Assembly (NCBI GenBank): GCA_963734495.1
Contig: CAVTHK010000001.1
Span: 512,001-576,000 of the forward strand
Reading direction: 5' to 3'
DNA from: an uncultured Spirochaetota bacterium
Lineage (GTDB): Bacteria; Spirochaetota; Spirochaetia; SZUA-6; CAVTHK01
DNA: 64,000 nucleotides
Under the pieces are notes generated by a model. The model had not been told where the DNA came from and did no database searches. It worked only from the letters and a program-made list of their open reading frames with translations. The position numbers and the translations under genes were made by a program. Positions 25,109-63,094 of this stretch are shown here, piece by piece; the stretch's first letter is position 1; every line of letters begins with the position of its first letter.

Positions 25109-25601
25109 GACACTTTCCTCCTGGCGCGTAAGTTCGAAAGGCCGACGGCGGAAGTCAAGAAGAACCGGCTGCCGTGTCAAGGCTGCCGCGATGACGCGGG
25201 CGCGGGCGAACCGGTGACAACGCGACGCGCTGCGGGCTCGAGGTCAGGCGGTTCACAACGCGCGGCTGATGAAGAGGTTGCCGAGGTGCGAGGAGCGGAA
25301 GGCCTGGCGGATCAGCTCGGGAAGCCGCGGCGCGGCGGCGTGGGCGCCGATTGCGCCCGCGGGGAAGTCGCAGTCATCGTCGGGAAGGATGCGTGACGTC
25401 CCCGTGGTACGCAACGGAGGCACCCGGAAGGATCGAATGTCCTATATCTCTTTGTTCGCCGCCAGGTCTGAGCGTTGCTTCCTCCTCGTTATGCTCTCCG
25501 GCAACGGCGACTGTCTGTCAAAAGCCGGATCTCGGACTTGCGCGCGGAGGCGCCGGCGCGCGCGCTTGCCGGCACGCGCCCCTTGTCCCTACACTCGCGT
25601 G

Positions 25602-26401
25602 GTGGCCGTGATCTACGTCGGAACCAGCGGCTACTCGTATTCGGACTGGGTCGGCCCCGTCTACCCGGCGGGGACGCGGCAGCGCGACTTTCTGGAGCTG
25701 TACGCGCGCGAGTTCGCCATGGTGGAGCTGAACTTCTCCTTCTACTCCCGGCCCAGGGCGGAACAGCTCGCGCGCATGGCGGACAGGGCGGGCGAGCGGA
25801 TGCTCTTCAGCGTCAAGGCGCACCAGTCCCTGACGCACGAGCGGCCGGAGGATCCCGGCGCCCGAGGCGGCCGCGCTGCGCGACGCAGTAGCGCCCGCTG
25901 GCGGAGCGGTCGAGGCTCGGCGCGGTTCTCGTGCAGTTTCCCTTCAGCTTTCACTACGACGTGCCCTCGCGGCGGTACCTCGACCGCCTCTGCCGCAGCC
26001 TCGAGGGGCTGCCGGCGGCGGTCGAGTTCCGCAACCGGGAGTGGCAGCGCGAGTCGGTGCTGCAGTCGCTCGCGGAGCGCAGCGTGGCGTTCGTGAACGT
26101 GGACCAGCCCGAGCTGCCGGAGCTGCTGGAGGCGAGCGAGGCGGCTACCGCGGACCTCGGCTACCTGCGCTTCCACGGCCGCAACAAGACGAACTGGTGG
26201 ACGGGGGACAACGCGACGCGCTACGACTACCTGTACTCGGACGGCGAGCTGGAAGGGTGGGTGGACCGGGTGCGGGCGATCCTGAGGCGGGCACGGACGT
26301 TGCTGATCGCCTTCAACAATCACTTCAGAGGTCAGGCTGTCCAGAACGCGCGGATGATGAAGGGCCTGCTGGCTCGAGACGGTATCGGGCCGGTCGCCTG
26401 A
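25602..26401 (+). CDS. DUF72 domain protein (YecE-like), frameshift near 25870
   Basis: IYVGTSGYSYSDWVGPVYP, VELNFSFY, QFPFSF, VEFRN, YLRFHGRN, YDYLYS, FNNH. Confidence 0.9.
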
Positions 26402-26457
26402 CGGCCGGCTCGCGGCGACTTGTCGAAGGCGTGGATGATGAATCTGATTGTCGGGTA

Positions 26458-26486
26458 TTGATTCCCGCGAGGGGCGTTATTATATT
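26458..26486 (+). promoter_or_regulatory. Sigma-70 promoter TTGATT-N17-TATATT
   Basis: Near-consensus AT-rich hexamers with 17-nt spacing, directly upstream of the hairpin repeat array. Confidence 0.75.
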
Positions 26487-26492
26487 CCGGTC

Positions 26493-26662
26493 AGCGCACA
26501 TGCTTCTGTCGGGGCCTCCCGGGTTTTCGACCTCCTTTTCCCCGGGAACCAACCTTGACAGGGGCGGCCCCCCGGGTTTTCGACCTCCTTTTCCCTGGGG
26601 GCTTTTTTTTGCCTTGCGGCCCCCGGGGATTCGACCTCCTTTTCCCCGGGGGCTTTCATTTT
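26493..26662 (+). ncRNA. Candidate small RNA with three GC-stem hairpins carrying the conserved loop UUCGACCUCCUUU (anti-SD)
   Basis: Three repeats at 26517-26547, 26567-26602 and 26619-26653. T8 tract after hairpin 2, TTTCATTTT after hairpin 3, promoter upstream, no credible ORF. Confidence 0.65.
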
Positions 26663-26735
26663 CGCGCTGCCCGTGCCGCCCAGTGCCGCTCCCGGCCGGG
26701 TTGACATTCCGAGGGCAAAAAGCTTGACTTCTCGC

Positions 26736-27793
26736 ATGCTCTATGCGCTGGGCCAGCTGCTGGCGCCCGTCTACGGGCCGTTCCGGCTGCTGCGCTCCCA
26801 CCTGTTCCTGGCCGTGCTCGGCCTGATGGCCTGCTGGTACCTGTCCTGGAAGCTGCTGCCCCTTCTCGCCTGCCGGCTCCCGAGCGATCGCGGCAGGCAG
26901 TACGCCGTCGGCAGCGAGCACGCCAAGGGGAAGCCGACCGGCGCCGGTCTTCTCTTCGTCTCCATCTACCTGCTGGTCCTGCTTCTCGTCGTGCCGTGGG
27001 ACGCCAGCTACCTGGTGGTCATGGCGTGCATCTTCGTGGCGATGCTCTTCGGCTACTTCGACGACCGGGCGACTCACCCCTGGTCGGAGTACACCAAGGG
27101 TTTCATCGACCTCGTGCTGGCGCTGATCGCGGCCTCGGCGCTTTGGGTGTTCAAGTTCCACGAGGCGCCGGTGTGGCTGCCCCTGACAAAGAAGTTCTTC
27201 CACGTTCGGACCGGTGCCTTTCATCGCCGGCGCTTCCGCCCTGATCTGGCTCGTCGTCAACGCCGTCAACTGCACGGACGGCATCGACGGCCTGTCGGGC
27301 ACCCTGTCCGTCCTCGCGCTGCATCAGCCTGGGGGTCGTGCTGGCCTTCGTGGTCGGGCATGCGCTGTTCGCCGGATACTTCCTGGTGCCGCACTACCCC
27401 GACGGCGCGCGCTGGGCGATCATGGCGTTCGCGATGGTCGGCAGCCTCTTCGGCTATCTCTGGCACAACGCCTATCCCAGCGCGCTGCTGATGGGCGACG
27501 CGGGCTCGCGCGCCGTGGGCCTCCTCATCGGCATCCTCGTGATCGCGACGGGCAATCCCTTCGTCATCCTCACCGTCGCCACGGTGGTGCTGGTCAACGG
27601 CGGCACCGGCCTGATCAAGGTGGCGCTCCTGCGCTTCTTCCGCATCGGGATCTTCCACGACGTCCGCTTCCCGCTGCACGACCACTTCAGGGACAAGTGG
27701 GGGTGGAGCAACACGCAGGTGCTGCTGCGCTTCGCCATCGCGCAGACCCTGCTCACCATCGTCCTTCTGTCGGTCCTGGTGAAGATCAGATAA
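26736..27793 (+). CDS. mraY: Phospho-N-acetylmuramoyl-pentapeptide transferase, frameshifted at ~27200-27330
   Basis: FGYFDD, NAVNCTDGIDGL, NAYPSALLMGDAGS, PLHDHF; GKPTGAG variant of the TPTMGG loop. Confidence 0.88.
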
Positions 27794-39128: not shown

Positions 39129-39250
39129 CGCGCGTGAGTGTGCCGGATTTTCACGCGTCGCTTCAAGGCCCCGCTGCTCGGGTCACCGGCGCCTGCTGTT
39201 CGGGGCTGTTCGGGGGCCTTGACCAAGGCGCGCCGCCGCCGTAGTCTCCG

Positions 39251-39340
<90 letters not shown>

Positions 39341-39409
39341 GAACCCTCCCCACTATCACCAACGAGCAGCGCGCAGGCATCGTCGCGCGCACGCTGCGGG
39401 AGGCTTGCC

Positions 39410-63010: not shown

Positions 63011-63094
63011 TGCCGACGAAGGGACTCGAACCCTTACGGCCTTGCGGCCGCCAGATTTTGAGTCTGACACGTCTACCAGTTTCGTCACGTCGGC
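63011..63094 (-). tRNA. tRNA-Leu (anticodon CAA)
   Basis: GCCGACG acceptor stem, D-loop TGGTAGAC, anticodon loop CT-CAA-AA, long variable arm, GGTTCGAGTCC. CCA not encoded. Promoter TTGACA-N18-TACCGT at 63133-63104. Confidence 0.95.

Follow-up and report, generated by a model that had tools for sequence, protein, structure and literature searches.

A triple-hairpin locus with anti-Shine-Dalgarno loops in an uncultured spirochaete is very probably an RNA gene of a family spread over the class Spirochaetia

Between a DUF72 gene and a glycosyltransferase family 4 (MraY/WecA-like) gene of an uncultured Spirochaetota bacterium lies a putative small RNA (sRNA) locus, composed of a promoter and three adjacent hairpins. 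It occupies positions 26458-26662 of a 64,000-nt stretch of DNA (contig CAVTHK010000001.1, positions 512,001 to 576,000) that was analyzed in its full length and is referred to here as the window. An earlier note, made from the letters of the window alone, had described a sigma-70 promoter followed by three hairpins with the same loop core, and the sequence confirms this arrangement. The features, together with the two flanking genes, are the following.

26458-26486, plus strand: sigma-70-like promoter, TTGATT (26458-26463), 17-nt spacer, TATATT (26481-26486), with 9 of 12 matches to the consensus.
26493-26662, plus strand: predicted small RNA of about 170 nt, or about 118 nt if it ends at the T8 located 3′ of H2, from the fold and the promoter position.
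26506-26561, plus strand: hairpin H1, outer stem CTGTCGGGG/CCTTGACAG (26506-26514/26553-26561), inner stem TCCCGGG/CCCGGGA (26517-26523/26541-26547), loop TTCGACCTCCTTT at 26526-26538.
26566-26602, plus strand: hairpin H2, loop TTCGACCTCCTTT at 26579-26591, followed by T8 at 26603-26610; intrinsic-terminator-like.
26618-26654, plus strand: hairpin H3, loop TTCGACCTCCTTT at 26630-26642, followed by TTTCATTTT to 26662; a second terminator-like site.
25596-26401, plus strand: DUF72 gene, the 5′ neighbour, in two frames (25596-25880 and 25931-26398), Pfam PF01904 with E = 2e-19 and 1.7e-32.
26701-27793, plus strand: glycosyltransferase family 4 gene, the 3′ neighbour, ATG at 26736, in three frames, Pfam PF00953 with E = 7.5e-11 on 27338-27790.

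The TTGATT-17-TATATT element is the sole sigma-70-like site between positions 26300 and 26800 (one found against 0.1 expected in shuffles), and the start of the RNA at 26493 is an unmapped position placed from the −10 element. The plus strand folds into three hairpins with −89.9 kcal/mol (z = −5.5, none of 200 shuffles being as good), and the minus strand reaches −82.3 kcal/mol (z = −3.2 against shuffles). H1 is not followed by a T-run. The stem of H3 had been described as a perfect 11-bp helix; the hairpin stands, the perfection does not, the plus-strand fold giving ten G-C pairs, one A-U and one G-U.

Each module is a GC-rich hairpin with a loop of 13-17 nt displaying UUCGACCUCCUUU, which reproduces the 3′ tail of 16S rRNA, that is, the anti-Shine-Dalgarno (anti-SD) sequence. 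The two 16S genes of this genome both terminate in GGATCACCTCCTTTCT, and hence the ACCTCCTTT of the loop is identical over 9 nt to the organism's own 16S tail. The 13-mer TTCGACCTCCTTT is present in exactly three copies in the window, one per hairpin, whereas shuffled windows contain a mean of 0.71 sites with up to two mismatches and reach three in 2 of 100 cases. In the whole genome of 5,378,768 bases the only exact copies are the three window loops; sites with one mismatch amount to four more, as compared with 12 for a reversed control pattern. Since TTCGACCTCCTTT is unique to the locus, the hairpins are not a scattered repeat of the repetitive extragenic palindromic or terminator type.

The one other genome of the genus, here the sister species (G001; the genome of the window is G000), has the same synteny, with the DUF72 gene, the promoter, a conserved CAGCGCAC block just 3′ of the −10 element and three hairpins. 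Its promoter keeps the hexamers (TATTGAT, ATATATT) in spite of a diverged spacer. H1 and H2 retain the loop; that of H3 is degenerate (TTTGACCTCATT) but followed by T6. The stems differ from those of the window by compensatory changes, as in CTCCCGGG/CCCGGGA to CTTCCGGG/CCCGGAAG, H1 shows a change of C-G to U-A, and the outer helix of H1 is maintained with different bases. The triple-hairpin array is so far known from this genus alone, in both of its genomes.

Single hairpins of the same design are found more widely. A covariance model, R1, was built from 11 hairpins of the order to which the genome belongs. The three window hairpins are among them, so that their own scores (H1, 26512-26552, 51.8 bits; H2, 26565-26605, 55.2 bits; H3, 26616-26656, 55.6 bits) are not independent evidence. 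Of 92 genomes of the order, 43 have one to three R1 matches, distributed over families f7 (24 of 24), f6 (17 of 21) and f1 (the single genome); there are none in families f2 (25 genomes), f3 (5), f4 (2), f5 (8) and f8 (5). The exact hairpin pattern, searched over 185,579 species genomes, occurs at 40 loci, 38 of which are in entries titled as spirochaetes, the other two being metagenome-assembled genomes titled 'Thiotrichales' and 'Christensenellaceae'.

The 76 R1 matches comprise 39 distinct sequences in which 89.5% of the cells are paired, and six of the ten pairs have changed on both sides. The stem covariation score over those 39 distinct sequences is 0.254 versus 0.163 in shuffles, a value that none of 500 shuffles reaches, and displacing the pairing partner by a single column lowers every measure of covariation and pairing. 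The loop, G/UUUUC-N-ACCUCCUUU-N, is virtually invariant, and its version in family f7, UCACCUCCUUU, matches the 16S tail over 11 nt. Varying stems around a fixed loop, which the earlier note had reported from the three hairpins of the window, are thus a property of the homologues as well.

The anti-SD strand of the hairpins also carries the signals expected for transcription. Among 53 instances differing in their flanks, at least four T residues follow the hairpin directly on that strand in 43, an A-run of at least four residues precedes it in only six, and TGTAAC-N13-17-T(G/T)GT is present within 160 nt upstream in 27. Because the anti-SD strand carries the T-runs and promoters, the strand that functions corresponds to the plus strand of the window; fold, promoter and T-run bias are in agreement on the stand-alone structured RNA gene that had been proposed there. 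Two variations were observed in the order. In genus g7, two hairpin genes are arranged in tandem about 200 nt apart (locus L039 of G051; also G014, G061 and G063), and at L039 each of them has its own GTAACC promoter, a duplication of the gene, unlike the duplication of the hairpin in the window. A subgroup of hairpins (L025-L027, from G047, G077 and G031) lacks the GTAAC promoter; in it A-rich runs precede the hairpin and another GCCTCCTTATTTTATTTT follows closely. Its members could be terminators working in both directions or a variant form of the gene.

Elsewhere in the class Spirochaetia the hairpin belongs to a larger unit of about 90 nt, which we call canonical. It consists of a 5′ hairpin, the single-stranded stretch (U)UUUUCAU-NN-ACCUCCUUUU, a short linker, a terminator hairpin (for example CCCUCAGGG-UUUUGUACCUCCUUUU-CCCUGAGGG) with the anti-SD motif in its loop, and a U-run. 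A canonical gene therefore contains ACCUCCUUU twice, in the single-stranded stretch and again in the loop of the terminator. A second model, R2, built from 20 canonical units, matches in 68 of 151 genomes of the class, mostly in a single copy, among others in families f9, f14, f16 and f25 (6 of 6 each) and f17 (5 of 6), and the complete 2.8-Mb genomes of genus g60 also carry matches. Family f34 has none (0 of 6), and it also lacks the sigma factor gene described below. When a sample of the phylum was searched, R2 matched 6 of 151 genomes, five within the class and one (E = 1.4e-4) among about 135 genomes of other classes. A pattern combining promoter and motif occurs in 67 of 401 class genomes, with 19 for the reversed control, and about 57 of the 71 places listed looked canonical by eye; the family counts given here come from the covariance models and not from this pattern.

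In canonical loci L097-L126 the most conserved stretch is UUUUUCAU-NN-ACCUCCUUUU, and the 5′ hairpin has an invariant 3′ arm and a variable 5′ arm. The antisense of that stretch reads as an SD sequence, AUG and AAAAA, like the generic start of Lys-rich signal peptides. A small gene antisense to UUUUUCAU-NN-ACCUCCUUU was considered and rejected: in three examples judged by eye the frames are short or unconserved, the gap between SD and ATG is 3-4 nt, and the T-runs are on the sRNA strand.

Canonical genes read the anti-SD strand from a promoter with the consensus GTAAC-N15-TTGTT. Copies of TGTAAC-N14-16-TTGTTT are rare, with two in the genome of the window, one in G037, none in G041, one in G007 and two in G073, against one control match. 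They are of two kinds, preceding either a hairpin sRNA gene (G037, G073) or a gene for a sigma factor of the extracytoplasmic function (ECF) type. In the genome of the window the latter is located as follows.

Contig 3, 232372-232921 (L093:1500-2053): ECF sigma factor gene directly behind the rare promoter; Sigma70_r2 3.6e-12, Sigma70_r4_2 4.2e-16, Sigma70_ECF 9e-6.

The start codon sits 3 nt past TTGTTT in this genome and in G073, and for this reason the ECF gene is apparently leaderless. A single-copy orthologue (E <= 1e-20) was found in 332 of the 401 class genomes sampled. At 28 of 32 ECF loci GTAAC-N13-18-T(G/T)GT stands directly upstream, with the start codon 3-9 nt after GTTGTtt, and three of the remaining four have GTAAC with CTGTTT. 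At the level of sequence, canonical sRNA genes share what would be the autoregulatory promoter of the ECF sigma gene. The two genes are never neighbours in the sRNA loci compared by tblastn. The gene located 3′ of the ECF gene has an N-terminus that looked anti-sigma-factor-like by eye, no family search having been made, and farther along its frame appears to be interrupted. Giacani reportedly described a spirochaetal ECF regulon in 2013, and the motif bound there may be relevant to the promoter proposed here.

How the array of the window relates to the canonical form is indicated by two observations. R1, built from the order only, recognizes the canonical terminator hairpin in 28 of 54 loci and so ties both forms together, and the array fits the family hairpin in its GC-rich stems, its loop UUU(Y)(N0-2)ACCUCCUUU(N) and the U-runs after H2 and H3. 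The genome of the window, moreover, holds a second sRNA locus.

Contig 13, 232832-233022 (L095:1340-1530), minus strand: promoter TGTAACC-N14-GGTTGTTT, about 50 nt, hairpin GGGCAAG/CTTGCCC with loop UUUCACCUCCUUUC, separate terminator.

This locus, which R1 does not detect, is 93% identical in the sister species over its transcribed part, with a diverged promoter spacer. Given that the genome has a canonical gene behind an ECF-type promoter on contig 13, the array of the window is an additional, sigma-70-promoter paralogue, specific to the genus, in a family that spans the class and has its canonical gene behind the ECF-sigma promoter. That family was absent from the earlier note. In the order of the window, comparison of the sequences indicates that the single-stranded motif is lost and the hairpin module alone remains.

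No Rfam family accounts for the locus. At gathering scores, Rfam finds in the whole window a thiamine pyrophosphate (TPP) riboswitch (39250-39347, plus strand, 59.7 bits) and a tRNA (63011-63094, minus strand, 54.9 bits) alone, and nothing at the hairpins. A permissive scan of 26000-27200 gave anti-hemB as its best match (19.3 bits versus a gathering score of 49.5), without any Csr/Rsm match at the locus, and none of the matches in 15 related loci came near threshold, the best being LhrC with 26.9-32.1 bits versus 110. Weak ylbH-leader matches were rejected, being on the opposite strand with 15.5 and 23.2 bits versus 50. Literature searches aimed at a spirochaete small RNA of such a kind, in a collection with few subscription journals, yielded none; a prior mention is possible. 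The sRNA is a new family of an already known kind of regulator, and not a new kind.

The flanking genes call for caution in reading the exact sequence. Both the DUF72 and the glycosyltransferase genes are readable only by changes of frame, probably owing to indel errors in the assembly, or else these are broken genes or pseudogenes; therefore the lengths of T-runs and G/C-runs at the locus are uncertain. The source genome has a completeness of 83% in 18 contigs. A search for sequencing runs gave nine DNA metagenomes, with small shares of 0.05-0.12, and no RNA run; contigs from four of the nine leave 26408-26713 uncovered, and neither outcome is informative about transcription. Upstream of the glycosyltransferase ATG at 26736 are TTGACA (26701-26706), a 17-nt spacer, TTGACT (26724-26729) and 6 nt, with no SD sequence, so a leaderless mRNA is possible on this promoter-like arrangement. 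The sister species also shows TTGACA and CTTGA. It had been suggested that many neighbouring genes look leaderless; among the genes of the window that were examined for this, it applies, as a possibility, to the next gene.

Taking into account that: (i) the loop is fixed while its stem covaries; (ii) T-runs and promoters assign transcription to the anti-SD strand, and (iii) the hairpin recurs through the class in a unit with its own promoter, we consider it very likely that the locus is a genuine RNA gene of the Spirochaetia anti-SD family. We propose the following model for its action. A non-coding RNA of about 120-170 nt, with three tandem modules each equivalent to the terminator hairpin of the class-wide family, would be transcribed on the plus strand from the sigma-70-type promoter. 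The exposed anti-SD loops would pair with strong SD sites (AAAGGAGGU) on mRNAs and block binding of the 30S subunit. Synthesis of the proteins with the strongest SD sites, among which signal-peptide proteins are enriched in this genome, would be lowered, and the AAAGGAGG leaders of solute-binding-protein or flagellin genes are candidate targets. Repression would spare mRNAs that are leaderless or have no SD, the ECF sigma mRNA among them. That the RNA acts through pairing with SD sequences and represses translation seems to us a reasonably probable outcome.

The proposed target class derives from the gene starts of the genome. This genome, of 68% G+C, has 860 AAGGAGG sites, 185 of which stand ahead of a start codon with a good open frame. 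Many of the encoded N-termini resemble those of signal-peptide-bearing lipoproteins or solute-binding proteins, and two those of flagellins, as judged by eye and with no family search. Exported-looking N-termini were counted in 28 of 52 AAGGAGG genes, in 30 of 115 and 63 of 218 genes with shorter SD sequences, in 10 of 87 and 49 of 278 with partial ones, and in 39 of 489 and 55 of 555 non-SD controls, counts that come from a crude signal-peptide rule applied to our own, more strictly filtered gene starts and from control sets that contain more false starts. Within that limit, the share of exported-looking proteins rises with the length of the match to ACCUCCUU. The two flagellin-like starts (319847 and 320936) lie on contig 7 about 8 kb from csrA (328738-328896), and both genes carry AAGGAGG ribosome-binding sites, potential binding sites of an anti-SD RNA.

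Several points weigh against this proposal, beginning with the crudeness of the signal-peptide rule. GGAGG precedes 7.3% of the starts versus 5.0-6.2% for G-rich control words, a weak excess, and SD-led initiation may be a minority mode in this genome. A generic 9-nt anti-SD would match hundreds of sites, which leaves specificity unexplained, and genome-wide complementarity to the full 16-nt loop lies mostly inside coding sequence (GAGGAGGTCGA), with no convincing specific target. Hfq was not found in a genome that is 83% complete. With regard to kinship, R2 has no match in the order of the window (0 of 7 genomes sampled, that of the window included), and the putative link between array and canonical form is drawn from the common hairpin module and the promoter. 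The array itself has neither the ECF promoter (no GTAAC within 160 nt upstream) nor the single-stranded motif, and it may accordingly be regulated or used in a different way. Finally, the decay of the third loop in the sister species suggests that H3 may serve there mainly as a terminator.

This last observation, in which stem and T6 persist without the loop, is also what one would expect if the hairpins were only intrinsic terminators or insulators between the DUF72 and glycosyltransferase genes, duplicated and with their common loop as a by-product, having no function in trans. The T-runs after H2 and H3 and their terminator-like scores fit that explanation, as do the position of the hairpins 3′ of a plus-strand gene and the convergent gene right behind the hairpin in several relatives. 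Against it, a promoter with conserved hexamers stands between the DUF72 gene and H1, and H1 itself has no T-run. The loop is fixed while the stems vary in three families of the order, a degree of conservation that ordinary terminator loops do not have, and elsewhere in the class this loop is part of a unit of about 90 nt that has a promoter of its own and repeats the motif in single-stranded form. We therefore regard termination as the sole role of the hairpins as unlikely.

Alternatively, the RNA could mimic the 3′ tail of 16S rRNA in order to titrate a protein that recognizes it, for example an RNase, a maturation factor or an assembly factor, instead of pairing with mRNAs. The KH domain of Era binds GAUCACCUCC, the identity with the tail extends beyond CCUCC (9 nt here and the 11 nt of UCACCUCCUUU in f7), and three copies would suit titration. 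The bases located 5′ of ACCUCC, however, vary by lineage (CG, CC, CA, GU, UA or none) whereas the GAUC of 16S rRNA is invariant, no gene for a partner protein is located nearby, and the conserved flanking U-runs fit pairing to the A-rich surroundings of SD sequences. We know of no precedent for protein titration by a mimic of the 16S tail, and give this explanation little credence. A functional minus strand, on which the AAAGGAGGU loops would act as a CsrA sponge like CsrB/RsmZ, is most improbable: CsrA is encoded in the genome (87.3 bits), its site is GGA in hairpin loops, and the minus-strand fold does beat its shuffles, but GGA loops exist on the minus strand only, opposite to the promoter and the T-runs, the run bias of 43 versus 6 among the 53 instances and the canonical GTAAC promoter both designate the anti-SD strand, and no minus-strand promoter-like site is present in 26300-26800, in line with the preference already expressed in the earlier note.

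Pairing with SD sequences, when combined with the promoter of the canonical genes, leads to a broader scenario. The family could be a class-wide non-coding arm of the ECF sigma response, in which the RNA, once induced, would use its copy of the 16S tail to compete against ribosomes at strong SD sites, so that abundant exported proteins would be shut down while leaderless sigma and SD-less mRNAs continue to be translated; the RNA of the window would be, in one genus, a constitutive baseline setter of higher valency. We put this forward as a speculation, rather doubtful at present. If true, it would amount to a stress-triggered shift from SD-led to SD-independent initiation. Few regulatory RNAs are known from Spirochaetota, and the association of a conserved RNA with the promoter of a nearly universal ECF sigma gene offers an entry point to the role of that sigma factor, the more so as the R2-matched genomes include complete ones of 2.8 Mb, probably of cultivated genera. 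It bears as well on whether spirochaetes have envelope-stress sRNAs as Proteobacteria, Firmicutes and Fusobacteria do, and on the question of how a regulator that copies the 16S tail in full could avoid halting all translation. An Rfam family could be started from models R1 and R2.

The RNA of the window belongs to none of the cuckoo/CcsR, LhrC or sigma-E-dependent sRNAs, with each of which it can nevertheless be compared. C-rich loops that pair with ribosome-binding sites are shared with AbcR1 and with the UCCC-loop RNAs of Staphylococcus, RNAIII and RsaE. AbcR1 of Rhizobiales targets mRNAs of ABC-transporter proteins (PMC4152367), and a C-rich loop motif of RNAIII pairs with ribosome-binding sites (PMC4615179). 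These RNAs differ in showing no similarity of sequence or model, in their different and shorter motifs, and in that their chaperone dependence is known. MicA, RybB and MicL of enterobacteria are sigma-E-dependent RNAs that repress mRNAs of envelope proteins. FoxI of Fusobacterium, also sigma-E-dependent, represses membrane-protein mRNAs (PMC9546586). The canonical members of the spirochaete family resemble this group in sharing a promoter with an ECF sigma gene; however, the sigma-E-dependent sRNAs use specific 5′ seeds and not a copy of the 16S tail, and the promoter of the array is sigma-70-like.

The layout of the canonical form is similar to that of LhrC, which has its sites in loops, in a single-stranded region and in the terminator loop. 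LhrC1-5 of Listeria are multicopy and induced by envelope stress, and their three redundant CU-rich sites bind mRNA and impede translation (PMC4132741). The difference is that LhrC (RF00616) is controlled by the LisRK two-component system rather than by an ECF sigma factor and has the motif UCCC; its model gave no match in the window at E <= 10, the scores quoted above belonging to three relatives. The cuckoo/CcsR/alpha-r14 RNAs contain two to four adjacent hairpins with the same anti-SD-like loop motif CCUCCUCCC and variable stems, and those of Rhodobacter are driven by the stress sigma factors RpoHI/HII and co-transcribed with the gene of a small protein (PMC4615179). The loops of the window carry UUCGACCUCCUUU and no CCUCCUCCC, the phylum is another one, the array has its own promoter, and the ar14 model (RF02344) reaches 15 bits at the locus versus a gathering score of 58.8 (E = 4.2). 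The likeness suggested in the earlier note is borne out in the architecture: with their adjacent similar hairpins, their repeated anti-SD loop and their several copies per genome, the cuckoo/CcsR RNAs are the nearest architectural analogue of the array.

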